Positions 1 through 47,291 of a stretch of DNA of 64,000 nt are shown here, in pieces (position 1 is the first letter of the stretch; each line of letters starts with the position of its first letter). Under the pieces are notes generated by a model. The model had not been told where the DNA came from. It ran no database searches and worked only from the letters and a program-made list of their open reading frames with translations. The position numbers and the translations under genes were made by a program. The DNA is from Phyllosticta citribraziliensis. Lineage: Eukaryota. The stretch lies in the NCBI RefSeq assembly GCF_038025025.1, contig NW_027117348.1:62001-126000 (forward strand). Direction: 5' to 3'.

Positions 1-526
1 CCGCCCCTCCCCCGACTTGATACTGACTGGCATCAGCAGCGCCGAAACACTCCCCAGATTCTTTCGCCATGTCCTCCCCTGGGCCGAACTGATTGGACAC
101 AGCGCAGCCTTGCCGGCCCTAACCTTCACCAAGCCCCGCATTGCGTTCTCAATGTGAAGATTGCTCAGTGAAAAGCGCCACGAAGGCACGCCATGACAAC
201 TCCGAATCGCTGAAAGGCCAACGCGGAAGGCTTCGGGACGATAGACGCGTATGCGAGACTTTGAACGCGTTTCCCCTGGCAAAGCTGCGGCCACGTACTG
301 CGTTGCAGCCGTTTTCTCGACAGCGAAGTTGCTGAATGTGGTGATCTGCTTTCAATCAACTTCGACCGCCAGGAACCGAGAACATGGGCAAAGAACAGCA
401 TTTTTGGTCGCGACAAAACGAAGCCTTCGCGTGAAAGATGCTACAAAAGGCTGTCGTGTCGATACCTGAGGTACTCAAGACACTTGGATCCTCTTGGTCA
501 TATTGAGACTCCCAGCAGCAACGAGC

Positions 527-28881: not shown

Positions 28882-29605
28882 GGTCTCCGGCTCAGTTGGG
28901 TAGTTCCGAGCGGGTCCCACCGGGCGCAGTTCGGGGTGCTCGGTGTAGTACCACTCCCACAGGGCGGAGATCTCGACTTTGCTATTTCCAATTGCGATTC
29001 CCTTGCTCTGAATGTTTGTGGTGGCCTTTGGAAACTAATGCGGTATGCTGAAGCTCTTATACTGCCCAGTGATGTCCTGACAATGACTTTGTGAAGGTCA
29101 AGTCGGGGGCGCGGCGGGACGAGAGTTGTGGTATTGTTTGAGACGACGGCTTGCGTAGCTGGGAGGTGCTTGACTAGACTGGCCGATTGGTGGGAGGAGA
29201 GATGCGGTCGTTTTGTTTTGGAAGTCTGCAGAAATGTTCTTCAACAAGTCAGCTGAAGCTTATTTCGGACAACATCAAGAGTCTTGCTGGGGTTCATACG
29301 GTCGTTTTGAAAGGTTTTCGCGTTGTCCGCACGTTTAGTATGAGGTTCCTCTGCAGTTGCGGCAGCGGAGCAGTTGAATCAAGAGTGTGGCCGCTGCGTG
29401 ACAGTGTCGTTGTGCAGAAGAGTGGTTGCGATGGCTGGTGTTGGAAATGCATCACAGTCGAGGCGGTTGCCCAGAGATGTACCCACTCACCTGCCCAATG
29501 GTCCCAAGCTTCAGAAGGAATTAACACTTTGATTGTGTGGTAAGTCTTGCCGCTTGAATTTTGGCGCCATGACCTTGCTATCAAGTTCACCCTGCAGTCA
29601 CTTGT

Positions 29606-31121
29606 TTACCCAGTACTAGATACATTCACCTCCAGCATTCTGCCCCCACAAGTCCTGGTTTGGAAGGCTCCCTCCCCCCATCCTGGCTTCCCTATCCCAT
29701 CAAAATTCACCAAAGACTCTTCGATCTCGTCAATCGCTTCGAAATCTGCGTTGACGACAACGCAGGCTGGCTTCTCTTCCGCCCCGCCGTCGGATTCGAA
29801 GACGATCCAGGCTGCGTCTCCCTCATGGCCAGCCCAGCCTTCGTCACCAGCCGTGACAACCTTGACCTCAAGTTCCAAAACCTCATGACCGCATCCCGGC
29901 GCAGGTATTCTCTTCAAGAAGAGTTTCCCCTTGCCAGAATCGCGCCTGACCACCGCATTGAAGAAGTAGCCAACGGAAATGTCCTTGATGTTGGCAAACC
30001 TGGCAGCAATGACGGCCGCCGGACCCCAGTTGTGGCATCCCCCGATGCCCGACCAGCCGCCCCTATCTGGGACGCCCGTATCTATATCGTCTGCCTCGGG
30101 AATTGTGACTTTGTGGATGGTGGGCTGCGACTCAATCATTTCGAGTACCAGGCCCATCGGAATTCTTGGTACATGCTCGTCATCATTGCTCTCGTGGTTT
30201 GGATGGCGGATAGAGACGATGCTGAGTGTCTGGAGGGACAGGGTTGGAACTCGCACTGATTGATCATGTTAGAAATAACGTAACTTCAATGGTGAGGAGA
30301 GAACAAACAGTGAATGGTCGCACCCGCTGAAGTCAGGAAGTCGGACACAACAAGTTCCAAATGGCGCAGGCCTTGAAGTGACTTCAACATGGCCATCATA
30401 TCATATACTTCAGCCTGACTGTATAGCACAGAGGACATTCCGTAGCCCTCTCGCGTTGAAGTCGAGACGCGAGTTGCTTTTGGTGTGAGCTTCAAGAGAA
30501 AGCGAAACTCAACGCTCAGAATGAGATCCTTGAGGTAAACGAATTGAATTGCTCCGTTCTGCTGCAGGCATCCTTCCACCTTCTGGGCAAGCAGATCACC
30601 ACCGTCAATTTCGAGTCGACGCAGAGTTGCAGGCTTCAGGAGAAGTCGGGAGATTCCTTGGGCGATCTGCGCGAGCGAATCATCGGTAGAGATTGAATTG
30701 ACGTCCCAGAACTGGTGAATTGAAAGTGACCTGATGAAATGATGTCAGCCGGGTCTCTCTGAAGAACTGTCGGGGAAACTTACTGGATGTGTCTGAGGAA
30801 GTCGGGTGGCCGTTGAACAAGCGCAGTCTGCAAGCCCGGCGAATCCATCGTTGGACGATTTCGAGCCAATTGCGAGTAGTTGTGCGATTGGCCAGCAGAC
30901 ATCAAGTCGATTCTTCGGAAAAAGATTCTTTCCGCTAGCTTGCGAGCCTGCCAGCTCGCCTTCGAGAAAGCAATGAGGGCCGACATGCCGCAAGACGGGT
31001 CGTGCCTATCTGAGGTAAAGAGAAGCTGTTCCAAGACTCCTTGGATGAGTTCTTTGGGCAGTCTCATCAGCGGAAACGGCTGCAGAGTGCAGTCCTGCAT
31101 GGAGGAAGAGAGTTGGTCCAT
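29606..31121 (-). CDS. F-box array copy A (family 2), 3 exons; introns 30731-30783 and 30256-30323
   Basis: F-box PFPLMRLPKELIQGVL; exon 2 SLSIHQFW..LRRLEIDG; exon 3 PMGLVLEMIESQP..PAAVIAA; canonical splice sites keep the frame. Confidence 0.85.
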
Positions 31122-31222
31122 GTCGCTGGCGTGAGTTTGACCTTGACGAACGGGGTGGTTGAGGAGTGGTGGCAGAGGGGAGAAAGCTTGAAAGGTGCAA
31201 AGTGGTGGAGGGTTGAGATTTC

Positions 31223-31337
31223 ACAGCACCGGAGCCGACGTTGGCGAGGATACGCCCGACCGGCGCCACCCAAAACAGCCGTCACGTGCCGAGGTTGCGG
31301 CTGGGCCAACGCCAATGCCCTGAACCGCATCTCAAGC
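31223..31337. promoter_or_regulatory. Conserved upstream module of copy A (ACAGCACCGGAGCCG 31223-31237; GTCACGTGCC 31281-31290)
   Basis: Near-identical block upstream of copy B; motifs recur upstream of D, E and F. Confidence 0.7.
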
Positions 31338-31617
31338 TTCCCGGCAGCCCTTTTTGACACCCACTGCTGCATTGCCCGCGCCCGCGGTCGCGGCTTCACA
31401 GAGATCTGGTTTCTGGAGCAATGATCTCGAGTATAAGCCTCACCGGCCTGAAATTTCGAGAGTATTTATTCTCCAAGTAGACCTGGGATTTAATGGACAT
31501 GTTAATCGTCTGCAAGGACAGGATTGAAAATTATACTGTGAGCGTTGTGAAGTCAAGAAAGAAACTGTCTAGTAGATCTATATCCGCCCCTATAAATCTC
31601 GTCCCATCCTCCCACCC

Positions 31618-33086
31618 TCAAGTAGTGTACTCATCGGTGGCCCTGCAGTCCGCATTGACGGCGATGGAAGCCGCCTCGTCGTTCTCGTATACGATCCAGG
31701 CCGGAGCACCATCAGCCCCCTCGTAGACGACGTGGATGTCGTACTCCTCCGAAACCACGTTTGGATGGTCAAGGAAAACCCTCTGCAGCGTGATGGTGCT
31801 GCTATTCAGATTGCGCCACAGGGAAAACTTGCAGTACTTTCCGACGGTAATTTCCTCGACGTCAAGAAACCTGACGGCAAGGATAGCCGCAGGTAGCCAG
31901 TTCTGCCAGCCCTGGTCTTCTTGCCAGCGCTTGCGGCTTCCGTCCGCTCCCAGGAAGATGTTTCTGGCCCGAGGGATGGTGATACTGCGCGTACCGGGCT
32001 GCGAACCGATCACGTCAAGAAGGAGCCCCATCGGCAGCTTATCGTCGTATTCGTGAGGTCGTCGAAGGGTCGAGGGCATGTATTCGCGTTCTCGAGTGAA
32101 CTTCAGCGTGTCGAGGGAAAGTGCTGGGAGTTGGACTGTTGAATCATGTCAGCATCAGTCTTTTTTGAAAATGGAGAGCGACATACCATCGAAGGGACGA
32201 TCGAAGTCAGCGATGGTGAAGTCGAGATGGCGCAGTTTTCGAAGCGCCCCGCACGACTGCAGCAGCTCGTCCACTTTCTGCTTCCCGTAGTTGCGAAACT
32301 CCCTGTCGTAGCCCTCTCGCGGCATGTTGGAGAAGTGCTCGATGTTTGGAGCCAATTTGAGAAGGAAGCGGAACTCGACGCTGGCAACAAGCTCCTGCAA
32401 GTAGGGAAACCGAACGTCGGCGTCAGCCAAGAACTCTTCCATGTACTGGGCTAGGCGCTCGCTGCCATCGATTTCTAGACGGCGCAACGTTTTCGGCTTC
32501 ATCAGGAGCTGTCCAATGCTAACAGCAAATGTATACAAGATTGCGTCGTTGCCGATAGTGTCGATCTTCCAGAATTCGTGGATGGCAAGCTCCCTATTTC
32601 GGTCAGTTGGTTGAATCTGCGGGGATTCTCCTCGGAAACGTACTGAATGTGTCTGAGAAAGTCGGGCGGTGGGACCTGAAGCAGTGTTTGAAGGCGCTCT
32701 GGAGAAAAGCCTGGGTACCACTGGGCAAGACGCGCACAGTCAGGCCTCTCAATGTCCTGTACGTTCGCACTCGTCAAGAGCTGGACATCCAGGAAGACGA
32801 ACTTCTTGGCGATTTCACGAAGGTGCTTGCAGGTTTTCGAGAAAGCAACGATGTCCTCCTTGTCGACGGATCGTCTTGCCTCTCTGTCTCCTCGAACGTC
32901 CGCGAGCTCCAGACCACCAAATATACCGAAGATATTGATGTCGTTGGACGGATTTGCTGGCCCGGTATCTTGCACGAGGTGTCTGGCGACATTCTCGATG
33001 AGCTCGTTTGGCAGCTTCAGCAAAGGGAAAGGTCGCATCTGGTGGGCAGCAATCTCGAAGTCGGAAGTTTCCTGCATTTCAGGCAT
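31618..33086 (-). CDS. F-box array copy B, 3 exons; introns 32594-32643 and 32136-32186
   Basis: F-box PFPLLKLPNELIENVA; ELAIHEFW; LPAAILA; same intron positions and phases as A. Confidence 0.87.
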
Positions 33087-33261
33087 CCTGTCTCGCCAGG
33101 TTAGCTTTGTGGAAGTGCTCAGAAGTTTTCCTTGCTACTTACTTGAACGAGCAGCTATACTGACAGCAAGGTCGATGAGAGGAAAAGGGAGATTGGAAGA
33201 TGCAGGGTTGTGCAAGATCCGAGAGTGGAGTAAGTAAATTGACGGAGGGTGGAGGTATTTA

Positions 33262-33367
33262 ACAGCACCGGAGCCGGAGTTGGCGGGCGGAAGCGCACCC
33301 AAAACAGCCGTCACGTGCCGGAGTTGCGCCTGCGCCAACGTCAAGGCAGGGTATTGTATCTCACACT
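33262..33367. promoter_or_regulatory. Conserved upstream module of copy B (ACAGCACCGGAGCCG 33262-33276; GTCACGTGCC 33310-33319)
   Basis: Shares CACCCAAAACAGCCGTCACGTGCCG exactly with the copy A upstream region. Confidence 0.7.
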
Positions 33368-33869
33368 TCTCAAAGAATTTCTGTGTGGTAAATCCACTCA
33401 AGAATCGCCTGCTTCTGGTTTCGTAGGCAGATTCGACTCTCGTGACTTGGAACGCTGAAGTGTTCCTGTCGCGGCATCACTTTAAGAAAACGAGACCTCA
33501 AAATTTTGTGCTGGAAAATTGAGGATTCAAACGAAATGCGAGCTTAATTTCTCATCGGCGGAGATGCTATCTCATTCCAAACTCAGCAGGGTTCATTGAC
33601 AACCCTCGCTGCGGCAATGTCCTCCCTGCGCCTCATCCGCACACCAAGATGACCCTCCCATTGTCCATACAGATGCCCAAAAGTCTCGTATTTCCCTCCT
33701 CATCGACCTCCTGCTGCGCTTTTGTGATGGCGGGCAACCAGATCTTTTCACGGAACTCATCGGCGCCAGCTGGGTCGTTTGGCAATGGTTGATAGAGCAA
33801 CGTATGGACGAAGAAGCCGATGGAGGTCCGTCTTGGGCCTGATCTCCTTGTGCAGCGCGGATGGTCTCT

Positions 33870-34800
33870 TCACAGATTACAGGGCGTCTCGAGATTTTTG
33901 GCAGTGACTTCAGTGACCTTGTAGAGGACGCTGCGATCAATGTACCCATTCAAAGTAATGTGAACGCTGTTCGCTCGCTGCCGCTGGTTCTTGATTGCAA
34001 CGGTAACGTTAGGCGGATCCAGTTTGCATTGGCCAACAACGGGGACGACATTGCTGTCTCCTGCGAAATTGGCGTTCGTCAATGCGTCCCTGGTAATGGC
34101 GAAGCTTTCCAAGGGAAGAGAGATGTCGGCTGTGTTTTGACGTCAGATTAGAGGACTCGGGGAAGCAAACTAGCAAGACTCACTTTGGAACATGTTCTGC
34201 CCGTCGAACTCGGCGATCATGACCTCCAAGGTTCTCAGTCTGGTAAGAGACGGACAACGAGCGGGCAATTCTTCTTTGTCTTCCTGGGGGCATATAGGGA
34301 GGCCAGTGTTGTTGCCGGAGTGCGTCTTGTTTAAAAGGCGCAAGACGCCATCATCATTGATCAGGACCCTCATAGCGTCGATGGTCACATCGATATCGCC
34401 CGCGCTCGGATCGGAGCTTGTCCAGACCTGTTGTATTGCAAGGGACCTACGAGCTTGTCAGTTAACTGAATACCACCTGGATACTCGACGTACTGCGTAT
34501 GCGGAAAAGGCTTCAGAGGGAGGCTCCGAAACATCTCCTCTACGTCACGCGAGTTTGCGACCGGATCTCTTTGGACAACGCCGGCGAAGAGACGCATAAC
34601 GTTCGAGAGGACCCATGTGTATTGGTTCACAATGTGACAAGAGTGTCCTTTCCCTACGCGCATTCTCATATTCCACCGCGATGACAGCGTCTTCGAAGTC
34701 GCCCTCCGCAACCTTTTCCCCGATTCCAACAGCAGTTCGTTTGGTGGACTGAAGAGCGGGGACCGGGTGGATTCGTCGCGGACTTTTTGGTAGAGGCCAT
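33870..34800 (-). pseudogene. F-box array copy C, frameshifted and internally deleted; introns 34447-34493 and 34130-34183
   Basis: SPLFSPPNELLL then a frameshift to IGEKVAEGDFEDAV; exon 2 SLAIQQVW..LRTLEV lacks the central LRRLHIDG block; exon 3 is shortened. Confidence 0.75.
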
Positions 34801-35219
34801 CAAATGAGATGGCGGCAAAGTCTCGCCGGACAGTCGAAGATGGAGTCGCGGTGTCGTGAAGGCAGTATCGTGGGTTTTTGGTTGAGCTTTTTGAGATTGC
34901 GGTCAGCTTTCACATGTCGCAGTGTTTGGAGTGAATTCGGAGACCCAGATCATGTTGTTGTCGTTCAGGATGGCCTGTCGGCGTGCTACCGTCCGGCTGC
35001 TCGAAAAGTGGACAAGATTGAAAGCTTCGATTCGAATGGGATATGCGGGATCTGAATCAAATGTCCCAGAAAGCCGTGAAGCAGATGAACAATGAAGTTG
35101 TCAAGTCCAGCTTTGCAGAAACTGGCGTGTTGATGTCTCGGCATGCTGTCAAGAACCTGGAATGGATTGTGGAACTTTTTCTAAAGAGTCTCGTCCTCCT
35201 GCCCTGCCCCGTCTCTCCC

Positions 35220-36854
35220 TCAGCCGCCCAGCAGTGCTTTCAGGCGGGGGTTGCCCAGATTCACCTCCACAGAAGTCGGCCGTCCCTCCTCGTCGACGAT
35301 GAACGCGGTGGCCTTGGTGTCTGGCTCCCCGTGGGTGATGCTGAGAGTCAACGTGGCTCCCAGGATGTCCACGTTGCGCCTGTGCTTCATCGTCAAGATC
35401 GGCTCCTTCCAATCATCCCAGAGAGTGTGCCAGCAAGGCTCGGGGACTGGTTGCCACATCGGCCACCCGCTAGATATCGAATCATCATCCGCGATGAATC
35501 GTGGGTCACCTCGAGGGTTGTCGTCATCGTCACCTGCTGAGGAGTCGCCGCTCAGTCTGAGCACAGTCTGCTCTCCCTCCCGGCGAACGATGTCGACGAT
35601 GGAACTGCGCCCGACGAGGACTCTCTGAATCGTTGGAACCAGGGCGGCGATGATGGCGGCAGGGAGCATATCGCTGAGTCCACCCTTCCAGTCCCAAGTC
35701 CATTTGTCGTCGTCCAGAGCGTCGATCTTCTCCGGTCTTGGGATGTGAGCATCGACCAGACCCGGCTGCGAACGAATCATCCCAACGAGGAACCTCATGT
35801 TGACTCTTTTGCAGTAGATGTCTTCGTCCGCAGGCCCTTCTGCCGCTTCAGCGTGGTCCCAGTCGCCAGGAAAGTAGTGGCTCCGGAATTCCTCGTTCGA
35901 TAGGCTCAGGCTCGTGAGGGACAAGGGCGGAAGATCGACTGGTGATGGATGTTAGTCAGTGTCTTGGGAAACAAGTGTTGGGGCGACATACTGCGAAAGG
36001 GGCGGTCAAAGTTTGCAACGGTGAGTTGCAAGGTCCGTAGCTTTGGCAGCGACTGACAGAGCCGATAAAACTTTTGAATCATCGGCTCGGAGCACTGGCG
36101 CGAGATGGTTATGCATCCTGAGAACGTCTTGTTCGAAAGACGCTCGACATTGGGCGTATGCTCGAGAAGGAAGGACATCTCGATACTGATGATGAGCTCA
36201 GTCACGTCTCCCAGTGCTGCTGCTGGTTGTGCTGTCATGGATTGCTCCAGATTTTGTGCAAACTTTGCGTCGGCATCGAGGTGCAAGTGGCGGAGGGAGC
36301 TTGGTGCCTCAAGCAGTGCCTTGACGCCGTTGGTCATCCAGCTGGCGGAGCCCTGCCAAAATTGGTGAATCGCGAGTGACCTTTGGGCAACCATTAGTTG
36401 AAGTCCCCCGCGCTTTTGGATTTCAAAGGACATACCGCGTCGATTTGAAAAGCCACACCGGTGGAGCTTTGAATTCCGGCAGGACCGCTGTCGAAAATAT
36501 TCCTGGACGTCCTCCAACGACAAGAGGAGCGTTGTGCTGGAAGGCATCGCGGCTGAAGCAATATGTGCCATCGCCGTGGCCCCTTCTGAGAACGCGAACA
36601 GTCCTGAAGAGCCGCGGCTTCACAAGACGCCGAAGCTGCTTGTTGACCTGAGCGAGCGACACAAGAGCCCTGTATGGTCTGGACGATTCAGGGATGCCGT
36701 ACTCGTCATACACCGGCCTCCAGACTCCGTTCTTGATGCCATCCTCGATGTCGCATTCCACGACCTTGTCGATGACACACTTGAGAAGATGGTCGTCGAG
36801 TCTGAGAAGTGGGAAGGGGCGAGAGTCCTGGCGGGCTGGAATTTTCGCCGGCAT
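35220..36854 (-). CDS. F-box array copy D, 3 exons; introns 36381-36435 and 35938-35991
   Basis: PFPLLRLDDHLLKCVI..LAQVNKQLR; SLAIHQFW; DMLPAAIIAA; WDDWKEP. Confidence 0.87.
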
Positions 36855-37045
36855 CGTGGGAGGTAGTCGTGATGTTGTGGAAGGTACGGTACGTCTCGCT
36901 GATCGGGGAAGCTGTTTCGGGCGAGATGGTGATGGAAACCTGAATATTTAACGAGATTCGAGATTGGTGGAGTGGAAGAGCGAGGTCAAGGTCGAAGTCG
37001 TGGGGCTGCCAAGCAGCAGAGTTAGGTGCCGCCGCGTGGTGGTCA

Positions 37046-37093
37046 AGTCGGGTGTCACGTGCCCTGGACGTCCATTCGGATGCCCGCGGGCGC
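37046..37093 (-). promoter_or_regulatory. E-box-containing element upstream of copy D (GTCACGTGCC 37054-37063), homologous to 6719-6768
   Basis: Direct sequence comparison; includes the GCCCGCGGGC palindrome. Confidence 0.65.
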
Positions 37094-37110
37094 GACACCG
37101 ACGTCCGGTT

Positions 37111-37221
37111 CTCGAGCAGGTCCTGGGGATAGCCGTGGCTCCTCGCAATAGTTGCAACCCATGAAGCAACCGTGTTGGTGTCTTCCTTGTATTTGTGATA
37201 GCTGGACTTGAGGAACTTCAA
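37111..37221 (-). pseudogene. Isolated N-terminal fragment of a DUF6604-family gene
   Basis: LKSSYHKYKEDTNTVASWVATIARSHGYPQDLL matches the recalled DUF6604 start motif YxxYKxDTxxVAxWLxxxAxxxGYPxDLL; similarity then stops. Confidence 0.6.
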
Positions 37222-37497
37222 GTCGCCCAGCGAGGGAGACAAAATTTCTCGCCGCTATCCCCCATTTCTATATCACCAAGGACGGCTTTGCAGAGGCTGA
37301 TCAGCTGGCGCGCTTGTGGATTTTACTACGAATATGACCGGGTTTCCATCATGGATTAAAAGACACTGTATTCTGCAAAGAAAGACTCAGAGAACGAATT
37401 CTAAAGCCTGAAATATACTATCCAGCAAAAGAGAGATTCGAAATCGAGGACAAACAAGACCCTTCTCATGTACCTCTCCCTCTCCCTCTCCCCTGCC

Positions 37498-39036
37498 TCA
37501 GAGGTATTCGACCGCGTCGATCCGTGGGTTGTCCACGTTCACCTCGATCCTGGTCGGCCTATGGTCCTCGTCCGTGATGAACCTTGCCGGGTGCACGTCT
37601 GGGCCCTCGTGGACTACATGGAGAGGCAGCACCACTTCCTCTTCCGCCCGATTGTAGACTTTCTGCCTGTTGACGAGCGGTTCTTTCCAGTGGTCCCACT
37701 GCTCGAACCAGCTGGCCGGTCGTTCTGTTGACCAATCCGCAACTGGAACGTCGGTCAACTTGAGCACCATCTTGTTCTCGCCTCGGAGGATTTCGACCAT
37801 CGAGTCTCGCCGGATCTTGATCCTCTGGAGGTTGGGGACTTTGGCAGCTATGATGGCAGCAGGGACAATGTCGACCAAAGCGAATTGTCTGTCTGCCGGG
37901 TCGCCTTCCTCCTCCCAGGCATCGTTCGCTCCAAGCCCGAGAGTCAGGCTGCCAAGCCACGGAATTTGCAACTCGACCAAGCCTTTCTGAGAGAGGGCCA
38001 TGTTGATGATTCCACCGAGGGGCATGTGGAGCTGGTCTTCGTCGATTGTGTCGGACATGCTTCGGGGTGCCTCTCCGGTGATGGCCAAAGTCTCCAAGGA
38101 CAAGTTGGGGATTCGAAACATGGCGGGATCGTGAACTGTTGGATAGAGTCAGATGAGATCTGTGAGAGACATTTCTTGCTTTACTTACAGTCCCTCCTCC
38201 TGTACGGGTCGAAGTCCGCGACCGTGAGCTCAAGGGTCTTCAGCTTTTGGCGGTTCCGGCAGGCGTCGAGGAACTCGCGTACGTGCGACATGGGGTATAT
38301 GCGAGGATCTTGTTCAACCCCCGAGAACGCTTTGTTTGACAAGCGTTGGATGTTGGGCATATATTTCAGCAAAAAGGTCATCTCAATGCTGATGGTGACC
38401 TCGGTCAGGGTGCTGAAGTCGATCGGCGGTAGCACTTCCATCGCGTCCTCCATGTAGTTGGCGAGTTTTGTATCCCCGTCGATGTGCAGGCGCCGAAGTG
38501 ATCGCGGGGCCTGAAGCAGCTTGATGATGCCATTGGAGATCCACACGTCGCTGAGATAGCCACGGGTCCAGAACTGGTGGATTGCCAAAGAGCTATTGCT
38601 TCTCGTCAGTTCAAGCTCGCTTCTACCTGGATTCGAGGACGTACCTGGTGCCGGCAAAGAGATGAACCGGCGGGCGACAGAAGATGTTCATGACTTCCTC
38701 GGAAATCGCGTAGGGTCTGCCTTGGGCGAGGGGAGAAAACCGTTGTTGGACGTCCCGGTAGGTCCTGTCTCCTCCCTGGCGCTTGAGAAGGAAGACGGTC
38801 CTGAATATGCGACCTTTGATCAAGGATCGCAGACTCTTGTTGACCTGGGAGAGCGACATGAGTGCCCTGACTGGCAAAGGGAATGTATAGTCCGTTGCCG
38901 TGGCTTCTTCAATGTCGCATTCGACGACCTGGTCGATGACGACTTTCAGAATGACGTCGGGAAGATCCAGGAGCCTGAACGGATGCTGCTGGCGGGCTGG
39001 AACTTCCGAGATGGTGGGCGCAGAGTGAGACGACAT
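37498..39036 (-). CDS. F-box array copy E, 3 exons; introns 38593-38644 and 38136-38188
   Basis: PFRLLDLPDVILKVVI..LSQVNKSLR; SLAIHQFW; DIVPAAIIAAKVP; WDHWKEP. Confidence 0.87.
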
Positions 39037-39060
39037 GGTGTATACGGTGGGATGTCGGTA

Positions 39061-39157
39061 TGAGGGAAGCGGAGTAGAGTGGAACGATTTCGTTGTGAAG
39101 GAAGCGGAGTAGAGTTGAACGATGTCGTGATGAAGAAATCGGAGCGGAGTGGAATCG
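39061..39157. repeat. 35-bp tandem repeat x~2.7 in the 5' leader of copy E
   Basis: Units 39061-39095, 39096-39130 and 39131-39157, core GAAGCGGAGTAGAGT(G/T)GAACGAT. Confidence 0.8.
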
Positions 39158-39241
39158 CAAGGTCGAGTTCCAGGTCGGAGTGGTTGTTGATGTCGGAGCC
39201 AGTGCACGTGCCGGAGCGAGGAATCGGGCGGTGCGCCGGGC

Positions 39242-39279
39242 AGACACAATGTTAACACCAAGACACAGTGTTAACACCA
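39242..39279. repeat. 19-bp tandem duplication AGACACA(A/G)TGTTAACACCA containing the TGTTAACA palindrome
   Basis: Two units, one mismatch. Confidence 0.85.
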
Positions 39280-39759
39280 CAACAGCGCCGAAGTGTTATT
39301 CTGGTTGCGAGGCTCGCTTCCATCAAGAAGACTTCCCAATACTGCGACCGATGCTCCACAGCCAGCTCTACAGGAAGACCCTGAAGCTGAATCATCTTGC
39401 CGGAGCTTCCTACTGACGAGATGAGAAACGACACCAATTCAAATATATTCGAGGAGCTTCTCCTCCTCCTATACGTGACAAAAGGCCTGAATCGAGGGGT
39501 TCAACCTCCTTTCGGCTGTCGAATATCACTGACTAGTTGGCGTGGTTGCTTATGCAAAGAACAACATCCAAGAAGATCACGAAAGCCTTAAAGAATGGCA
39601 TTGAAAGCAAGTGTTCTGTTTTCGAAGGAGGCTAAAGACTTCATACCCCTTTCCCATTACCGCAAAGCATCCACCCATTAGGCCATCATCAGTGAAGAAA
39701 AGAAAGCAAAAGGAGCAAGCCGCCGGGGTCGTCCGAGCATCATGAAAAAAAAGAGGTCT

Positions 39760-41354
39760 CTACGGCGCTAGGTCGACCACCTCGATGAAAGGATTCAGAA
39801 TGTTGACCACGACTGTCTGTGGCACTTCCTCATCATCCTTCTCAATGTACGCAGCCGCGTCGCCCTCGACGTGATCGACGCAGAGGACGACCTCTACCGA
39901 AAAGTCCGAAACGGCCTCCTTATCGACGCGCTCGTGGTGGTGGACAAGCGGTTCCTTCCAAGCGTCCCACCGGTGAGTCCAGAGGTGGGACGTCTCATCG
40001 TGGTAGTAGCTCCAATAGCTCCTCCCGGACCGAGGCGTGTAGGCCTTGTTCCTGGTCAGTCGCAGGCGCGTCGTGCCCGAGGCCTTGCGAGTGATGTCGA
40101 CAGTGGCATGCGGTCCGACGAACACTCGCTTGATGTTGCGGACTTTGGCGGCAACGACTGCGGCCGGCAACAGATCGGTGAGCTCGTGCTCCCACTTCCA
40201 GTGGATATCGGTGTCAATGTTTCCGAGTGCGATATCTTCGGGCTCGGGGATTTGGTACTCCTCGAGCGCGGGCTGGGAGCGGGCCATTCGCAAGACCAGG
40301 CCCATGGTGACTTGCCCGTCGGCATCGACATAGAAGTCGTCGAAGCTTGGGACTGACTCTCTGATAAAGGACAGTTTCGTCAACGCCATGGGTGGAAGGA
40401 CGCCTGTTTGACCGTGTTAGTATTGGCAATTCAAAGAAGTGGGTAGAACTGCGCAACATACTTGCGGCCATGACGCTGTCTCGCCTTTCGTCGTATTGGA
40501 AGTTCCGGATCGTCAGCTCCATGGTCCGGAGCTTTGGCAGAGACGAGCACATGTCGAAAAAGTGGTTTACTTGTGCTGTCGTATACGCGCGCAACCAGTC
40601 GCTGCTTTCACCCGTCGTACGGCCCATGAGCGTCTTGTTTGATAGGCGCGTGACGTTGTGTGTATACTTCAGAATAAAGGCAAATTCGACGCTGATGATG
40701 ATCTCCTCAACGTTTGCCAGAGCTACTCTTGCCGCTGGCATGAGCTCCAACTCGTGCTCCAAGGCCGTGGCGAATGCGTGCTCACCATCAAGATGAAGCC
40801 GACGGAGCCTCTCAGGCGCTTGCATGATGGTACGTAAGCCTGTGGCAATCATGCGCAGAGCCCAAGCCTCGTCGGCGGGGAGGCAGCCATTTGCGTGCCA
40901 AAACTGGTGGAAGGCCACAGACCTGTTGCCCAAGTTAGTAAGAATCGTTTCGAATTAGGGGCGGCGGAGCCACTGACCTGGTCTTCCTCAGGTGGTGCAG
41001 ATCAGGCTGCCCGAAAAACTCCAAGATCTCCGGCGAGTCGACGGCCAGGTTGCGCTGGGCAAGCGGAACGTAATTCTCGCAGACATGCTCGAGAGGCCTG
41101 TCCATCTTCCTCATGATGCTGACCGTCCTGAAGACTGACTCGTCGCAAAGCTGTCGGAACTTGTGGTTGGTCTGGCGGAGGGGAAAGACACTCCGGTTGG
41201 ACGGCTGAGTCCTGTTGTCTCCGACGGCGTCGTCGATATCGCCTTCCTCCACGTGGCGGACGATGCGAAGGAGGAGCTCGTCGGGGAGCTTGAAAATGAC
41301 GCAAGACGCGGTTCCGTTGCGGGCCATGGTAGCAGTGGCAGAGGTAGTGGACAT
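39760..41354 (-). CDS. F-box array copy F, 3 exons; introns 40923-40977 and 40404-40461
   Basis: IFKLPDELLLRIV..LRQTNHKFR; SVAFHQFW; DLLPAAVVAAKV; WDAWKEP. Confidence 0.87.
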
Positions 41355-41562
41355 TTTGGAGCGATTGATGTCGGTATAGAGCAGATAGTGAGGGGGTTGA
41401 TGTATAGGCAGCGGAAGACGGTTGGTGGTGTATACGGAGTGATGGATGGAAAGCTGAAAGTTGATCGGGATGATGGTTTTTGAGAGGGAAAAAGTGGTTG
41501 ATAGCGAGGTTTGAAGGCGGTATATTCCTGCAAGGTTGTGGCAGAAGAAATTTTGGCAAACT

Positions 41563-41625
41563 CGGCTCCGGTGCTGTCAGTCGTGCAGTGCGATGGGCGC
41601 CCGCAAGTGCACCCTGGCACGTGAC
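41563..41625. promoter_or_regulatory. Upstream module of copy F with both motifs inverted (CGGCTCCGGTGCTGT 41563-41577; GGCACGTGAC 41616-41625)
   Basis: Exact reverse complements of the A/B motifs, in the same order relative to the gene. Confidence 0.7.
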
Positions 41626-42312
41626 GACAAAACTGCCATGCCGTGGACCGGACTGCACAATAACAGGCTGACTAACAATATACTGACCTGAGCTGAACTC
41701 AAGGTCTCTCCTATCTGGATTCCTGGAAATGGAGGTAAAGTTCAGGGAGAATTGACCCCTTTTGTATCTAAAAGAGAAGGTATACCGCCGCCTTCAAAAG
41801 CAAAGTCCATTGCTGAACCCAAAGGTTTTCATCTGCAATCATGGATTGGAAGGAAGAAGCCTAGCATCTGAAGATCCAACCAAGAGACAACCATCAACGC
41901 CTTAAACGCCATGGCGCACTCTGCTCGCACTGTGGGCAGCCTGGAATCTGGTGGCTATTGTTTGTAGACGACGCGGCGCGGGAGCTGCCGAAGCACGCGA
42001 TCATGTGTGGGAGTTTGGTCCGTTGCTGGGACAATTGAGCTGCTAAGACGGCTTGAGGACGCGGATGGATGGGTGGTGCGGCTCGAGGAGTTCGATGGTT
42101 GACCGCGTCCACGGCCGCCGCGGGTGGCTGGTCTCGTCGGGGACGGTATCATCGTTGGTGTCGGCGGGCAACTGTCGACGCTCTTGGCGTCGCGTCGCTC
42201 TGACGAGCTTCAGGAGGCTGCACATAATTAGACTGGGGGAGTCAGTATTTTAAAAGAGGAGCCAATAATCTAGCAGTCTTCTCCGACAGGAGGTGAGGTC
42301 CCGCCCGGCAAG

Positions 42313-42402
42313 TGGCTCAATGATGAGAAGGAATCCGGTGTCGTATGTTGCTACCAGAGTTGCGAACGTGGCAACATCTTGTAGCGGTTGGTAGTCCTTG
42401 AT
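42313..42402 (-). pseudogene. Captured ~90-bp fragment of a RAD3/XPD helicase gene
   Basis: IKDYQPLQDVATFATLVATYDTGFLLIIEP closely matches the recalled fungal Rad3/Rad15 segment (IEDYQPLQEVATFATLVATYEKGFLLILEP); flanks are unrelated. Confidence 0.7.
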
Positions 42403-42552
42403 ACATAGAATAAAGTCACAAAGGCCCTTCGTGAGCGACATGAAGAGTAGGGTTGAGACTGCTGAACGCTATGTACTTGGGGCTGAAAACAGTCTGCAAA
42501 TTGAATGTGCCCCCCTGAATCCCGAGTGCCGTCGAGACGTTCCGTTTTGGTA

Positions 42553-43736
42553 TCATGGAATGTCCCCTTCGTCGCGCATCTCGATCAGCTCATGGTTCAT
42601 GTTTACCACGACTGCAGTGTGCTTCCACCTCCCATCCGTGTCCATGGCCATCTCGATGAAAGCAGGGTACTGGAAGTTGCCGTAGTAATTGATGTGGAGG
42701 GGGAGCTCGGCCCAGATTTCGCGTCTCGCGGTCCAGTGCCGATTGCGAGCAACCACCGGTTCCTTCCAGCTGTCCCATTTGTGGATCCAAAGGTCGCTTC
42801 CAAAGGGCTGGTAGGGGAAGCCAGGCCGAGGTCGGGGTCTTTGGCTGCGACGTGTTTCTGGCTCCAAGTTGTCGCTCATCATCCGCAGATGCCTCATGCC
42901 CAGTCCATCATGAAGGACATCGACGGTGACATTCTTTCCCACGTGTATGCTTCGTAGATTCGGTACTTTGGCCGCAATTATTGCCGCGGGCAGCATATCC
43001 ACGATTTGGCCTGACGGCGGCCATTCGATCTCAACTTCAAACGCCCCAATCATGACCAGATCCGTCTCCGGGATTCTGAATTCACGCAAGTTTGGTTGGG
43101 AGCGGGCCATGTTCAGAAGCACACCCAGCGGAATCGGGTCTCCAAAGCCACGGTCAACCTGGTAGTCTTCGCAGCTTTGGACGACTTCCCTTGCGACGGC
43201 TAGTTTTTGCAGCCCCATGGTGGGGAGGACAGCTACTCACGTGCGTCAGCCTCAGAGTTACGAATGTCTCAGTCGTTCTGAACAACATACCTCGAGAGAA
43301 GGCGGGACCCTTGAACGAATCAATGTTCAGCTCCATCTCTATGAGCCGCGGCAAGCGAGAACAGAGCCCAAAGAACCTTGTAACTTGCTTCATCGAGTAT
43401 CTACGCAAAACATCACTGCTGGCACCTGTGGTGCGGCTCATAAGCGTGTTGTTCGATAGACGCGAGACGTTGGGCGTGTACTGCAGCATGAAGTCAAACT
43501 CAATGCTGAAAACAATCTCATCGAGGTTGGCCAGTGCTGCCCGAGCCGCCGGGGAGGATTGCAGCTCACGCCTCATGTACTGAGCGAAGTACTTCTCTCC
43601 GTCGATGTGCAGACGTCGAAGTTTCTTCGGTGCTTCAATCATCAGGCGGAGACCCTTGGCAATCATCTTCATGGCGCAGGTGTCCTCGAGACGGGTGCAG
43701 CCGAACGTGTGCCAGAATTTGTGGAAAGACAGGTTC
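42553..43736 (-). pseudogene. F-box array copy G: intact exons 2-3 (intron 43233-43290) but no F-box exon 1
   Basis: NLSFHKFW..LRRLHIDG..DMLPAAIIAAKVP..WDSWKEP; upstream of the intron-1-like stretch (43737-43782) the frame hits TGA within 7 codons; first ATG at 43672. Confidence 0.7.
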
Positions 43737-44172
43737 CTAGAGAAATTAGTTGAATTCCGTTCCTTGGACAGTCCAATCTTACGTGGTGCTTCGAGCAGTC
43801 CAAATTCACCACGAAACGCAGCCCCAGATCTTGTTCACGTGAGGAGTTTGAAGACTCCGTTTTCTCTTCGTGGCCTTGCGGGAAGTTGAACGAGTCTTCT
43901 GAAAGGATGCCGTGGTCGTATTGGTCGAGCCACTGCTGCTTCTCGTTGGGTTGGCTGGGTTCGTGATGACTTCACAGGTTGTTAAACAGGCTGCGCAGGA
44001 CTCTTGCGCTTGATCTTGGACTGACTGGATGGAGTGTTGCGCTCATCGGCTTCGCGGCCTGCAGAGACAGTCAGTGCATGGCTTTCTCTTGCTCGCACGG
44101 GTGAACTTACGAAGCTGAGCAGCATCGGGCGGGATGTTCTCCTCTGATGGATGCGTGGGCGTCTTCCAACGG

Positions 44173-44295
44173 CTACTCTTTGATGCGGGGGAACTTGGTG
44201 GCAATTGCGCCGGCTGGGAGCATGTCGACATTTCGAGTAAGCCACCTCCAGTTGTCCGTATCGTGGGGCGTTCCAAGGTAGATTCCTTCGGGCCT
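44173..44295 (-). pseudogene. Orphan exon-3 remnant of another array copy
   Basis: RPEGIYLG..DTDNWRW..VDMLPAGAIATKFPRIK aligns by eye with exon 3 of F (EPEDIALGNIDTDIHWKW..DLLPAAVVAAKVRNIK). Confidence 0.65.
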
Positions 44296-44372
44296 TGAAG
44301 TGAGAAAGGTTTCATTACTGTACCAAAAACCTCTCTGGGACTGTGAAAAAGAAAGGAGAATGTCGCCCCGTC

Positions 44373-45865
44373 TCAACTACCAAATTTTCGAATGATGGGG
44401 GAATGCAGATCCACGATGACTGCGAAGGGTCTGCCGAATTTCGTCCAGTCAATCCACACCGTTCTCTCCTCGTCGTCGCCGTAAGCAAATTCAAGGTCTA
44501 AGAAAATCTCCGACGGGACGGCGCACTGCAGCTGCGCGTAGACCAATGGCTCTTTCCAAGAGTCCCACTCGTCCTGCAAGCAAATCGGCTTCACCACCTC
44601 TAGTGGCAATTCTATCTGGTCCGCAGGCACGAAATAGGTGCTGTGCTTGAAACCAATGGTCTTCCCCTTGACCTTGACCACGTCGAATATCGAGGTGCGC
44701 CCGACGTGTATACGCTGGATCTTTGGTGCTACAACGGCGATGATGGCAGCAGGGAGTATATCACTGCGCTCGTCGACTTGTTCCACGTATTCGGCGAAAT
44801 CCATCTCGACGCGCTCAGGAAGGGGAATCCGGATCTCAACCAGGTGAGGCTGCTTCTGGATGCATCGTAAAATGTCTTCCAAGGGGACAGACTCCGACGC
44901 ATTTAGCGGCGAGTGTTCGCTTCGTACTGTATCGCTGCTGATGGTGAGGGTCTCCAGAGACATTCTTGGGAGGTGAACTGCGAACGAATTAGCGGAGACG
45001 GTCAGATACTCACGCACGACTTACATCTGGAGTGGCCTTGAAAATCGACAGCGGTGAGCTCCATGTTCTTTAGCTTGGGCAGGCTCTGACAGACGGCAAA
45101 AAATTGAGAGACCTGTTCTTCGTTGTAGAAGCGTTGCCGGTAGTTGAGTCCGCTTCCCGAGTACGGTTTGTTGGAAAGTCGCTCGACATTCGGGGTGTAC
45201 TGGAGCAAAAAGCACATCTCTAGGCTGAGAACAATCTCTTTCACGTTGGCCAGATTGACCGGCCGCCTGTTCATCTCGGACTCGAGAGATATAGCCAAGC
45301 TCCAGCCTCCGTCAATGTGCAGACACCGGAGCATGTTCGAGCTGTCCATGATCGACATCAAAGTCCTCGGAATCCAGATGAAGTCGTTTGGAGTAAACTG
45401 CCAAAACTGGTGGACGGCGAAGCACCTGTCGCAATAATCAGTGAGCTGAAGCTTTTCCAGCAAGGGTCCGTGATGAACTCACTCGAGTCTCGAAAAAAGA
45501 TGCAGAGGAGCATTTCCGAAACGCTCATGGAACGGGGCGATGTGCGGCATCGGATTTCCCTGAGAAATCCCAGAATAGAACTGGAAAAGGCCCTGGTTGC
45601 GGCCTTCGCTCTTCCTCAGAAGGCTGAGCGTCTTGAACATCCTCTCCACGCAGACAGAGCGAAGGCGCTTGTTAACCAGGGAGAGCGCCATCAAGGTCCT
45701 CTTTGGCCGTCGTCCGCGGCGCTGAATTGTGTCGTCCGTGTCGGCGTTGGCAACTTCGTCGGCTACTTTGAGCAAGATCTCGTTGGGGAGTTTGAGGATT
45801 GGGAACACCGGGTATCGCGTCGTTTTCGAGGAGAATGGCTTTTCGGAAGGAGCTTGGAACGACAT
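44373..45865 (-). CDS. F-box array copy H, 3 exons; introns 45426-45482 and 44978-45024
   Basis: FPILKLPNEILLKVA..LSLVNKRLR; CFAVHQFW; DILPAAIIA; WDSWKEP. Confidence 0.87.
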
Positions 45866-47291
45866 TGTTGCGGTAGAATTTGTCGTGAGAAGAGGGTTGC
45901 AGAGTAGAAGTTGTGTTGTGGCCGAGATGTTTTGGTCAGAGGCCAGCGTTGGACACGAGACTTGGCACTACAGGCGCACACATCTCAAAATAACACTTCG
46001 AGTGTCAATTCGACGCCTTCCGTACGTACTGCCGGTACCGATTTAGCAGCCCGGAGAGGACTGTCCACAAAATTAGTCCGGGCGCTTTTCACTGTTACGC
46101 CCTCGACATACTGGTACCCTTTCCTTGCCATCCAACCATCTCAGTCCGTTTGGCATCAATTTGGACCCCAAGATTCCGCCTTTGGTCACAGCTTGCTGAC
46201 TTCGACCTCTCAGGACTCACAAGACGCGCTCTGATCGACCTCGGCCTCCTCGCAAACCCGCGTCCGGACTTCTGTGGTATTCCATTACAAGGAGCAAAAG
46301 AAGACGTCCTAATTGAGCTGATGGATCGCAGACTTGCCCTGGTCGGGAATGATATGTGCGGTAGTGGAGGAAATATACAAACAGCATTGTAGTCGAAGGA
46401 GTCTCGCGAATTCGTCAAGTCAACGTGCGACGCAATTTTGGACAGGGGAGACACCCAAAAGCAACATTATATATGGCCAGCATGCAGTCGAAGGAATAAG
46501 AGAAGATTTCGGCCAAGCTTTTACGCGGCAAGATCTTGCAAATATACGGAAGACCGAAAATGCAATTAAAGCAAAGGTTCATGGTCTTTTCAATAAATCC
46601 ACGCCGGTCCAGCAATCTTTTTGCAGTTATCAAGAAAAACTCCTCCCACATCAAAAGAACAGCAAAGCCAAATAATCCAGGGAACATACAGCTAACGAAA
46701 CCACAGAACATCTTCAGCAACACACCAACAGCCGCTCTACACAAGCCGAGAATCCAGAGCCAAGTCTCGCCCCGCAAAGAAGTAGATTTGAGCCACTTGG
46801 AAGATTCAAAAATCGTCACGACAATACGGAATCAAGCAGCCCAGCCTTCGAAGCTTCGAAGGCTCAACTGTACTCGACTCCGTATTGTGGCAGAGGTGCC
46901 TTTTTCTTCCTCGGTCAAAAACGCCATCGCGCTCCCCAGAGAGCAGCAAACACCATTAATGAAAAAAGAAAAGAGCGCAGACAGCAATAAGGACAGCAGA
47001 CCAATTCCCAGCACGCTACACCACGCAGTTCGACCGAAACAAAACGAAGAGAAGCGGGATTAGGCGAACGACGCGAAGGTCGATGGAAAGTTGGGGTGCT
47101 GACGCCGGTCCTGATGCTTGATATGCTCGACATGCCTCGCTTTTCCTCCAGTCGAGCGCCGCATTCGCTCTCTCCCTGCCCTCCCTCCAACCCACCACCA
47201 CAACCACCACACCCCATCCCCCTCCTCATCAAAACAACACCTCCCTCCCAATCAAAAAGTCAAAACAAAGAGGCAGCAAAACAAAACAAAA

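Follow-up and report, generated by a model that had tools for sequence, protein, structure and literature searches.

A Syntenic Tandem Array of Predicted F-Box/LRR Genes in the Fungal Genus Phyllosticta

Introduction

What do the genes of a tandem array of highly divergent, F-box-like sequences encode in Phyllosticta, a genus that includes endophytes of citrus as well as the agent of citrus black spot, and what has driven the copies apart? Expansions of ubiquitin-ligase receptors within single lineages have been studied in depth in plants and nematodes. The array described here lies in a 64-kb window (the whole stretch of P. citribraziliensis DNA that was analyzed), and we consider it probable that it represents a Phyllosticta-restricted FBXL-type F-box/LRR family, its members most likely being interchangeable substrate receptors of SCF ubiquitin ligases.

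In the mechanism that we propose, exon 1 would encode a divergent F-box, with a variable acidic insert between helices H1 and H2, and then a poorly ordered linker; exon 2 would supply five irregular RNI-like LRR units that form the conserved core; and exon 3 would add three LRR units and then a beta-rich cap (~100 aa), together the end of the protein that changes fast and the likeliest site of target choice. The duplications would be older than the divergence of the citrus Phyllosticta species and, in part, older than the separation from P. capitalensis. Copies would since have stayed open at one syntenic site, their proteins changing several-fold faster than a neighboring gene, and occasional copies would have decayed (copy C and an exon-3 scrap) or lost the F-box (copy G). 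We infer both the Skp1/SCF function and the role of exon 3 as a specificity module.

Array Organization and Gene Models

The array spans 16 kb (29,606-45,865), with all eight loci on one strand, the minus strand. A splice-site scan followed by in-frame assembly yields six intact three-exon genes (copies A, B, D, E, F, and H; 455-508 aa); the remaining loci are copy G, which lacks exon 1, and copy C, which is decayed, plus one extra exon-3 scrap. A tblastn search with the six models found no further copies outside 29609-45886 within the window. In all six intact copies, intron 1 is in phase 2, directly before (S/E/C)(L/V/F)(A/S)(I/F/V)H(Q/E)FW, and intron 2 is in phase 1, shortly 5′ of (L/V/I)P..(S/A/G)L..L; the introns are 47-58 nt long, with GT..AG ends and CTRAY branch sites. 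A preliminary description of this DNA had reported a 16-kb same-strand array of eight copies with fixed intron phases (2, then 1), and the models bear this out, with the refinement that only six copies are intact. Every motif that it quoted is present (LRRLHIDG, PNVERLSNK, LPKLRTLEL, LPAAIIAAKVP, WDxWKEP, and VxVN), and WDxWKEP is confined to copies D-H, as stated there. It had also called for spliced models as a check; those now built for B, D, E, and F equal or nearly equal deposited proteins.

Copy A (29606..31121, 469 aa) starts with an ATG at 31121 and runs to a last codon ending at 29609, followed by the stop; its exons lie at 31121-30784, 30730-30309, and 30255-29609 plus stop, separated by introns at 30783-30731 and 30308-30256. 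The deposited protein P0013 corresponds to residues 92-435 of copy A at 100% identity and is fused to a downstream gene. Copy B (31618..33086, or 33086..31621 without the stop; 455 aa) has introns at 32643-32594 and 32186-32136, and its model is identical to deposited P0014 (100%).

Copy C (about 33870..34909) is a decayed remnant in which both introns (34493-34447 and 34183-34130) are retained. Its exon 2 encodes ~95 aa, against 129-153 in other copies, its exon 3 is truncated, and the remnant of its F-box has no preceding start codon; splicing yields no ORF longer than 232 aa, and tblastn detects the copy at 34203-34418 only.

Copy D (35220..36854, or 36854..35223 without the stop; 508 aa), with introns at 36435-36381 and 35991-35939, is identical to deposited P0012 (100%). 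Copy E (37498..39036, or 39036..37501 without the stop; 477 aa), with introns at 38644-38593 and 38188-38136, is identical to deposited P0001 (100%) and is the copy that was modeled with AlphaFold. Copy F (39760..41354, or 41354..39763 without the stop; 494 aa) has introns at 40974-40923 (donor GTCAGT) and 40461-40404, and is 99.8% identical to deposited P0011 (493 aa).

Copy G (42553..43736) has neither exon 1 nor an F-box, and consists of exon 2 (about 43736-43291), intron 2 (about 43290-43233), and exon 3 (about 43232-42556 plus stop), with both exons in open frames (43735..43292 and 43230..42556). Its orthologs P0015 and P0025 possess an N-terminal exon; a search of the spacer at 43742-44372 with exon 1 of P0015 gave no match at E ≤ 10. 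Between H and G lies the isolated exon-3-like scrap (44179..44361, containing DMLPAGAIATKFPRIKE), which matches residues 316-372 of copy F (E = 4e-4). Copy H (44373..45865, or 45865..44376 without the stop; 462 aa) has introns at 45482-45426 and 45024-44978, and is 99.8% identical to residues 1-461 of deposited P0010 (946 aa), a fusion of H and G. Faulty deposited gene models were thus flagged in three places: the H+G fusion, the joining of A to a downstream gene, and fused multi-copy models in P. citrichinensis. No tRNA genes were found in the window. By eye the N-termini of the copies are without a signal-peptide-like hydrophobic start, and a role as secreted effectors or host mimics is retained only as part of the E3-ligase island proposal below.

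Promoters

The promoters of several copies contain a 10-nt motif, GGCACGTGAC, which is retained even where they are otherwise not alignable. On the minus strand it is found at 31281..31290 (160-169 nt upstream of the ATG of A), 33310..33319 (224-233 nt upstream of B), and 37054..37063 (200-209 nt upstream of D), and it recurs in reverse orientation, on the plus strand, at 41616..41625 (262-271 nt upstream of F). In copy E only the 8-mer GGCACGTG is present (39205..39212, minus strand, 169-176 nt upstream), and the promoter of H is without the motif. The sites of A and B lie inside a block conserved between the two promoters, and A and B have the motif in common by descent. The window contains six exact CACGTGAC sites, and four of them lie 160-271 nt ahead of the start codons of A, B, D, and F; the count itself is not significant (5 of 100 whole-window shuffles reach six sites), nor is that of GGCACGTG (8 of 100 reach six). 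With the CACGTGAC E-box shared by four or five promoters, the copies may be under common transcriptional control.

Divergence and Age of the Copies

Pairwise identity among the copies is 18-54%. The subgroups proposed earlier, A/B, D/E, and F/G, are recovered in the tree with support of 100/100 (P. capitalensis rows falling inside the A/B clade), 85/79, and 99/97, respectively, and copies E, A, and G each cluster with orthologs from other species at 99-100% support. Copy E is 69-71% identical to its P. citrichinensis ortholog and copy A 70-74%, as compared with 92% for the neighboring subtilase; with this one gene as the rate control, the array proteins appear to diverge faster. Identities in exons 1, 2, and 3 are 68, 89, and 55% for E and 76, 85, and 73-74% for A; exon 3 thus varies most (55-74%, versus 85-89% for exon 2, across species), in agreement with the earlier proposal of it as the variable module. 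The added divergence of exon 3 extends into well-modeled blocks.

Among 14 paralog exon comparisons by the Nei-Gojobori method, pS is saturated (0.59-0.76) and dS is undefined in two, values that are uninformative on selection; pN (0.31-0.51) is below pS in all 14, and dN is lowest in exon 2. The duplications are old, because synonymous sites of the paralogs are saturated and copy-by-copy orthologs exist in other species. The same two observations contradict the recent, frequent duplication implied by the "fast birth-and-death" of the preliminary description; the fast component is amino-acid change together with sporadic loss, and not the birth of copies. RIP was considered as a cause of divergence and rejected, the two indices of the array (TpA/ApT 0.46, (CpA+TpG)/(ApC+GpT) 1.23) being equal to those of both flanks (0.50-0.52 and 1.23-1.25); GC is 54%.

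High amino-acid divergence, together with one decayed and one truncated copy, is also compatible with relaxed constraint: the family could be a redundant, largely dispensable set of orphans drifting toward pseudogenes, with the divergence of exon 3 reflecting weak constraint and not target diversification. The decay of C, the missing exon 1 of G, and the scrap at 44179-44361 fit this explanation, as do the low identity of orthologs (53-71%), a Pfam signal limited to a weak F-box, and the deposited P. citrichinensis models, in which, between E and A, B is absent and D is reduced to a remnant of exon 1. We nevertheless regard it as rather unlikely: six ORFs of 455-508 aa have stayed open with intact splice sites despite saturated synonymous sites, pN is below pS throughout, exon 2 is 85-89% identical across species, and the 10-nt promoter motif has been kept. 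Run X2 points the same way; among the structural differences listed, most are in copy C and between genes, the indels and replaced segments affecting C, spacers, an intron, and promoters, with none listed in exons of intact copies.

Genus-Restricted Range and Neighborhood

A search of 1.84e9 protein representatives with an exon-3 profile gave 19 matches at E ≤ 0.001, 16 of which are family members (6 from the window itself and 10 from other Phyllosticta species); the other three are multi-repeat LRR proteins outside Phyllosticta. By this measure the sequence range of the family is restricted to the genus. In at least three other Phyllosticta species, too, the array adjoins this subtilase gene, and the site appears from these comparisons to be syntenic across species: the subtilase orthologs of P. 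citrichinensis, P. citricarpa, and P. capitalensis (92, 83, and 79% identical, respectively) lie on contigs equal in length to those that carry the family members of these species. The flank of the array within the window contains a pair of F-box genes of a second family (32% mutual identity) and three RING paralogs (26-48%).

A tandem, genus-restricted family whose distal LRRs and cap change fastest, even in well-folded blocks, and whose neighbors include other fast-diverging E3 genes could be a non-self or conflict repertoire, in which adaptively diversifying receptors mark proteins of mycoviruses, incompatible nuclei, or selfish elements for degradation, or act as antidotes. An analogy may be drawn with the nematode and plant F-box expansions (PMC8120010, PMC3719486). 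This explanation seems unlikely to us, given that the paralogs are old and have stable orthologs in place of quick turnover, and that a Pfam scan of the window found no HET, NLR, or toxin-like partner. Runs X1, X3, and X4 contain near-identical pieces, and therefore no within-species hypervariability is visible in them.

A broader proposal takes in the whole window, with its eight F-box/LRR loci, two F-box genes of the second family, and three RING genes, several of them behind CACGTGAC sites, as a co-regulated, genus-specific "E3-ligase island" in which the distal LRRs and cap would form an adaptive repertoire for recognition inside the cell against non-self, selfish, or host-plant proteins; the sources of the non-self or selfish proteins may be mycoviruses, incompatible nuclei, and drive elements. 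We think it a little less likely still; if it is true, the locus would parallel, in a fungus, the immune-like F-box expansions of nematodes and plants.

Predicted Structure

By sequence the F-box is weak. At the N-terminus, five of six exon-1 pieces match the Pfam F-box or F-box-like families (PF00646/PF12937; E = 1.7e-4 to 0.055); exon 1 of copy B alone reaches the curated F-box cut-off (21.8 versus 20.5 bits), and exon 1 of A has no match. PF12937 is matched by 5 of the 20 rows of family alignment A2 at E ≤ 0.01, and hhalign aligns residues 20-83 of the family with the F-box of a neighboring bona fide F-box gene (E = 0.005, probability only 7%). The H1-H2 loop holds a variable acidic insert of 17 residues (hhalign) or longer, which could impair Skp1 binding.

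The full-length AlphaFold model of copy E has a pTM of 0.70, with 111 of 477 residues at pLDDT < 50, structure models here being built on shallow alignments (20 and 17 rows). It contains a three-helix F-box fold (helices 27-47, 58-63, and 67-77), followed directly by an LRR solenoid, as in FBXL proteins: eight strand-helix units at residues 132-373, irregular in that strand-to-strand spacing is 19-50 residues, and then a five-stranded sheet at 377-465. The preliminary description had left exon 3 as an unassigned domain. That no longer holds for its first half, which in the predicted model forms three further LRR units, LPAAIIAAKVP being the helix of the last; it does hold for the final ~100 aa, a predicted beta-rich cap with a W..WD.WKEP helix. 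When the exon-3 model was compared with 48,161 PDB representative chains by VIA-align, none reached Z ≥ 5; the best rows (Z 4.2), kinase-like alpha/beta folds, were dismissed as meaningless here.

Foldseek matches of the E model include, among the best, D3-ASK1 (E = 3.9e-5), COI1, Skp2, FBXL2, and FBXL3, with FBXL17 and TIR1 lower down (17 matches at E ≤ 0.001); TM-scores against solved FBXL proteins are only 0.2-0.35. The top VIA-align match is Skp2 (1fqv_A; Z 10.3, 260 aligned, rmsd 6.5); for repeat proteins such a Z is no more than moderate, and RanGAP and ribonuclease inhibitor come nearly equal (Z 9.5 and 9.1). The Skp2 alignment spans residues 17-414, so that the F-box helices are included, and the alignments to Skp2, FBXL2, and FBXL17 begin at residues 17-20. 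Pfam LRR families have no match to exon 2 or exon 3. A PDB search with the A2 profile returned a single LRR receptor kinase at chance level (E = 0.04). Pfam DUF6546 (PF20183) was followed as a lead and abandoned; none of 17 family members matches it, even at E ≤ 10, with HMMER filters discarding most matches above about 0.1. A DUF6546 cluster is the third-nearest ESM Atlas neighbor of residues 340-477 (0.91, 132 shared features), a score within the chance range.

Judged from the models, the fold class is that of an F-box/LRR receptor. The earlier description of very divergent F-box genes with LRR-like strands in a tandem array is supported, and the array is lineage-restricted. That the family consists instead of LRR scaffold proteins no longer acting through SCF, with the F-box-like helices as a structural relic, is very improbable: the sub-threshold F-box scores of five of six copies, the acidic insert, the persistence of G as an open frame without an F-box exon, and the closeness of RanGAP and ribonuclease inhibitor to Skp2 would fit, but both deep clades retain the LP(D/N)E(L/I)L helix and, downstream of it, the ..S.VNK.LR..(I/V)F.TV helices, and of the structural matches that extend to the N-terminus the top ones are F-box proteins complexed with Skp1.

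Comparison with Known Systems

In the literature titles and abstracts searched, no expansion of ubiquitin-ligase receptors is described for Phyllosticta, and broader searches gave no fungal F-box array among the matches listed. The locus is a compact and tractable case, with eight loci at one syntenic site, a conserved core, a fast end, and a cap without a known fold. Should the copies turn out to be adaptive receptors, they would point to a level of intracellular recognition that has gone unrecognized in filamentous fungi; otherwise they would illustrate cleanly how orphan paralogs can persist for long while drifting fast.

The nearest neighbors of copy E by ESM Atlas features are clusters of fungal "F-box domain-containing protein" sequences from Ascomycota and Basidiomycota (cosine 0.96, TM about 0.45-0.52), similar in predicted structure over about residues 16-460; this is a likeness in features and predicted fold, which need not mean kinship, and no sequence homology to exon 3 was detected in these clusters.

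FBXL-type receptors (Skp2, FBXL2/3/17, and yeast Dia2; COI1, TIR1, and D3/MAX2 in plants) likewise have an N-terminal three-helix F-box followed by an RNI-like solenoid, an arrangement that is predicted for the array proteins; they are of comparable size (450-500 aa in the array family), and they top the Foldseek and VIA-align results. Unlike them, the array family has no sequence-level LRR or FBXL match, its F-box is broken by a variable acidic insert, its LRR units are irregular, and its proteins, found in one fungal genus only, end in a predicted five-stranded cap with no PDB match.

Lineage-specific F-box expansions are also known from nematodes and plants. In contrast to those expansions, the array has only about eight copies, old duplications, and one-to-one orthologs, and its predicted recognition end is an LRR plus cap in place of FTH, FBA, or kelch domains. 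In other respects these expansions, S-locus clusters included, resemble the array: they too consist of substrate-receptor paralogs that are tandem and confined to one lineage, with a conserved F-box end, a variable recognition end, and pseudogenes.

Organization of the Array

Homologous open reading frame (ORF) fragments lie in a row on the minus strand between positions 29,606 and 45,967, and a scan for fungal-type introns (GT..CTRAY..YAG, 40–160 nt) found two short introns per unit. Splicing yields six uninterrupted three-exon genes, all on the minus strand: copies A (31121..29609, 469 aa), B (33086..31621, 455 aa), D (36854..35223, 508 aa), E (39036..37501, 477 aa), F (41354..39763, 494 aa), and H (45865..44376, 462 aa). 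Intron 1 is in phase 2 in all six intact copies, immediately 5′ of ..(A/S)(I/F/V)H(Q/E)FW, and intron 2 is in phase 1 in all six, shortly upstream of (L/V/I)P..(S/A/G)L..L. In copy G, exon 2, intron 2, and exon 3 are retained with open frames, and exon 1 is missing; when the first 128 residues of the orthologous deposited Phyllosticta protein P0015 were searched against the spacer (637 nt), nothing matched at E ≤ 10. Copy C keeps both introns, with a shortened exon 2 (about 95 aa, versus 129–153 aa), an F-box remnant lacking a preceding start codon, and a truncated exon 3. An exon-3-like scrap of 180 nt (44179–44361, minus strand) was matched by tblastn, and the same program, run with the six models, found no further copies in the window outside 29609–45886. 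The spliced models with their fixed intron phases, together with G, C, and the scrap, confirm the preliminary description of an eight-unit F-box array, its subgroups and motifs included.

The array proteins are already present in databases as hypothetical or F-box proteins. A search with exon 3 of E recovered an NCBI entry from Phyllosticta citribraziliensis, 477 aa long, whose sequence matches the E model at 100%; the D and B models likewise equal the deposited proteins P0012 and P0014 (both 100%), and the F model is 99.8% identical to P0011. Two deposited models appear wrong: P0010 (946 aa) joins H to G through a splice that bypasses the stop of H, and P0013 begins within A and runs into an unrelated downstream ORF (28180–29034), a fusion with part of copy A that is probably an error. 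This ORF (minus strand, directly 3′ of A) carries three C2HC zinc finger-like repeats (PCP..GC...F.......H...C) but has no above-cut-off match in Pfam (DUF7128 came at E 0.006). Deposited models from sister species also merge several array copies or remnants (P0002, P0003, and P0018 from P. citrichinensis; P0007 and P0008 from P. paracitricarpa/citricarpa; P0028 from P. capitalensis). In P0002, for instance, orthologues of E and A are run together with remnants of C and of D exon 1. The sister-species arrays hold decayed copies too, and their annotation is in need of repair.

Predicted Fold

Pfam F-box matches to the exon-1 pieces are weak, being found in five of six (E 1.7e-4 to 0.055) with only B above the curated cut-off and no match for exon 1 of copy A; the exon-2 and exon-3 pieces (n = 14) had no Pfam match below E 0.1. 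Profile–profile comparison aligns family residues 20–83 to the F-box of a neighboring, clearly scoring F-box gene (9608–11224) at E 0.005 and a probability of only 7%, placing a 17-residue acidic insert between F-box helices 1 and 2. An AlphaFold model of E (pTM 0.70, mean pLDDT 70.7), for which the family alignment had 20 rows, has N-terminal helices, a disordered linker (residues 77–111), eight strand-helix units (132–373), and a five-stranded sheet (377–465) with an inserted, poorly modelled helix carrying W..WD.WKEP.

When this model was compared with the PDB by Foldseek, the top rows included F-box/LRR receptors complexed with Skp1/ASK1 (D3 at E 3.9e-5, COI1, Skp2, FBXL2, and FBXL3, with FBXL17 and TIR1 further down); NLR-type LRRs score well too, from rank 3 onward. 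The top VIA-align match was Skp2 (1fqv_A; Z 10.3, rmsd 6.5, 260 aligned, model 17..414), and the runners-up RanGAP (Z 9.5) and ribonuclease inhibitor (Z 9.1) are close. Nearest neighbors by language-model features and predicted structure (ESM Atlas) are fungal F-box clusters, a lead but no evidence of kinship. We read the array proteins as FBXL-type in architecture, a reading tempered by scores (Z about 10, TM 0.2–0.35) that are modest for repeat proteins. An unlikely rival reading, that these are LRR scaffolds uncoupled from SCF, would fit the weak F-box matches and the RanGAP and ribonuclease inhibitor scores, and less so the Skp1-complexed receptors in the top rows and the first place of Skp2.

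Five LRR strands of the E model are encoded by exon 2 and three by exon 3; LPAAIIAAKVP forms the helix of the last LRR unit, and its strand, ..(L/I)(Q/K)R(I/V).(V/I), comes next. On the model, half of exon 3, which had been put forward as an unassigned domain, is therefore LRR. When exon 3 was modelled separately (pTM 0.77, pLDDT 77.3) and aligned by VIA-align to 48,161 PDB representatives, no chain reached Z ≥ 5 (best 4.2); the predicted terminal beta cap, of about 100 aa, is therefore without a recognized structural relative by that search. DUF6546, an ESM Atlas lead for residues 340–477, was rejected, with a score in the chance range and hmmscan hits in 0 of 17 members.

Range, Age, and Synteny

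An exon-3 profile (seven sequences) searched against 1.84 billion representative proteins returned 19 matches at the threshold of E ≤ 0.001, 14 at ≤ 1e-10, and 10 at ≤ 1e-30. Six of the 19 are the window's own proteins; another ten belong to the family and come from P. citricarpa, P. paracitricarpa, P. citriasiana, P. citrichinensis, and P. capitalensis (one of the ten is an assembly fragment whose cluster includes a P. capitalensis protein). The other three are long proteins matched over 6–16 short stretches each, which are generic LRR repeats; they gave no blastp match to the window models. At the level of these sequence searches, the family is limited to one genus, Phyllosticta.

Twenty-two rows went into a maximum-likelihood tree, among them the six models, G, and fused deposited models after trimming to single copies. 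The tree omits P0002, P0007, P0009, P0020, P0024, and P0027, which are fused, fragmentary, or redundant. There are two deep clades, both at 100/100: A and B with four P. capitalensis rows, and D–H with the remainder. E groups with P. citrichinensis, P. paracitricarpa, and P. citriasiana (100/99), A with P. citrichinensis (100/100), and G with P. citricarpa and P. citriasiana (100/99), with F sister to the G group (99/97). Between paralogs, synonymous change has reached saturation (pS 0.59–0.76), which, with the copy-by-copy orthologues, argues that the duplications are old and the copies inherited side by side; the fast birth of copies that had been proposed does not fit these values.

A neighboring subtilase gene (17880–20662, minus strand; Peptidase_S8, PA, and fn3_5 domains), represented in the comparison by 17880–19829, is 92% identical in P. 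citrichinensis, 83% in P. citricarpa, and 79% in P. capitalensis. Its counterparts there sit on contigs equal in size to those of family members (3,899,589; 1,087,661; 667,634), which supports conserved array–subtilase synteny in the three species. Subtilase homologues in other Botryosphaeriales are 33–42% identical.

Rate and Constraint

Identity to P. citrichinensis orthologues is 69–71% for E and 70–74% for A, versus 92% for the subtilase, so the family changes several-fold faster than this single control gene; E is 53% identical to its P. paracitricarpa counterpart. By exon (1/2/3), identity to P. citrichinensis is 68/89/55% for E and 76/85/73–74% for A. Within E it falls from 0.89 across the LRRs of exon 2 to 0.58 across those of exon 3 and 0.36 across the cap; the cap value is an underestimate because the deposited orthologue ends at residue 443. 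Exon-3 blocks with pLDDT 82–95 are only 30–70% identical, versus 70–100% for exon-2 blocks of like confidence; on the model, the excess change in exon 3 extends beyond disordered loops. A repertoire diversifying adaptively against non-self or in genetic conflict, the idea of the preliminary description, is an unlikely alternative that could account for such change, and has to be set beside the age of the duplications. Constraint on the copies is nevertheless visible: pN is lower than pS in all 14 exon comparisons, and six long ORFs and their splice sites have outlasted saturation, a poor match for the remaining rival, a dispensable orphan family under drift.

A further sign of constraint comes from X2, a relative that is about 87–96% identical across the pieces listed and covers all 30 bins; among the differences listed, indels and replaced segments fall in C, spacers, an intron, and promoters. 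RIP was rejected as a source of divergence, as its indices in the array are those of the flanks.

Neighboring Genes and Promoter Motifs

A second F-box family, unrelated to the array family, forms a tandem pair (7219–9063 and 9608–11224, both plus strand) with 32% identity between members over about 340–400 aa; the F-box is the only part in common with the array family. The first ORF piece of the pair matches PF12937 at 30.0 bits (cut-off 24.3), and the 538-aa ORF matches at 24.1 bits. Three plus-strand genes (13430–14422, 15386–16102, and 16846–17730) each encode a C-terminal RING-H2 finger (Pfam zf-RING_2, E 9e-8 to 6e-6; mutual identity 26–48%). The window is unusually rich in E3-ligase genes of the RING and F-box types. 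Elsewhere, ORF 54565–55101 (plus strand) carries an HsbA (hydrophobic surface binding protein A) domain (E 1.6e-8).

The window has exactly five occurrences of the 10-nt motif GGCACGTGAC; four are in the promoters of A, B, D, and F, 160–271 nt before the start codon (in gene sense at A, B, and D; inverted at F). The E promoter has the 8-mer GGCACGTG at −169, and the motif is absent from the H promoter. CACGTG-type E-boxes are bound by bHLH factors, e.g., Cbf1 and Pho4. The 8-nt E-box CACGTGAC has six exact sites in the window, all between ORFs; by a rough estimate, four of the six fall within about 1.8 kb of array promoters that are otherwise no longer alignable. The two outside the array lie upstream of F-box gene 7219–9063 (6753–6760, plus strand) and of the first RING gene (13197–13204, plus strand), each in the orientation of its gene. 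The argument is positional, since the whole-window count of CACGTGAC is without significance (5 of 100 shuffles reach six sites) and the A and B promoters share a conserved block by descent.

Interpretation

The best-supported reading is that the array encodes a genus-specific set of putative FBXL-type SCF substrate receptors. The proteins combine a conserved LRR core with a distal end, LRRs plus cap, that changes fast and probably determines which targets are chosen; the copies arose by old duplications, have been retained at one syntenic site, and are probably co-regulated. No paper on these proteins was found among the titles and abstracts listed for Phyllosticta F-box proteins, and broader searches gave none on fungal arrays among the entries listed.

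Lineage-specific tandem expansions of F-box receptors are known from plants and nematodes, and it is this mode of expansion that the Phyllosticta array shares with them. It differs in being a fungal family found in a single genus, with an F-box broken by an insert and a C-terminal cap for which no match was found, and, set amid other diverging E3 genes, it is a new variant.
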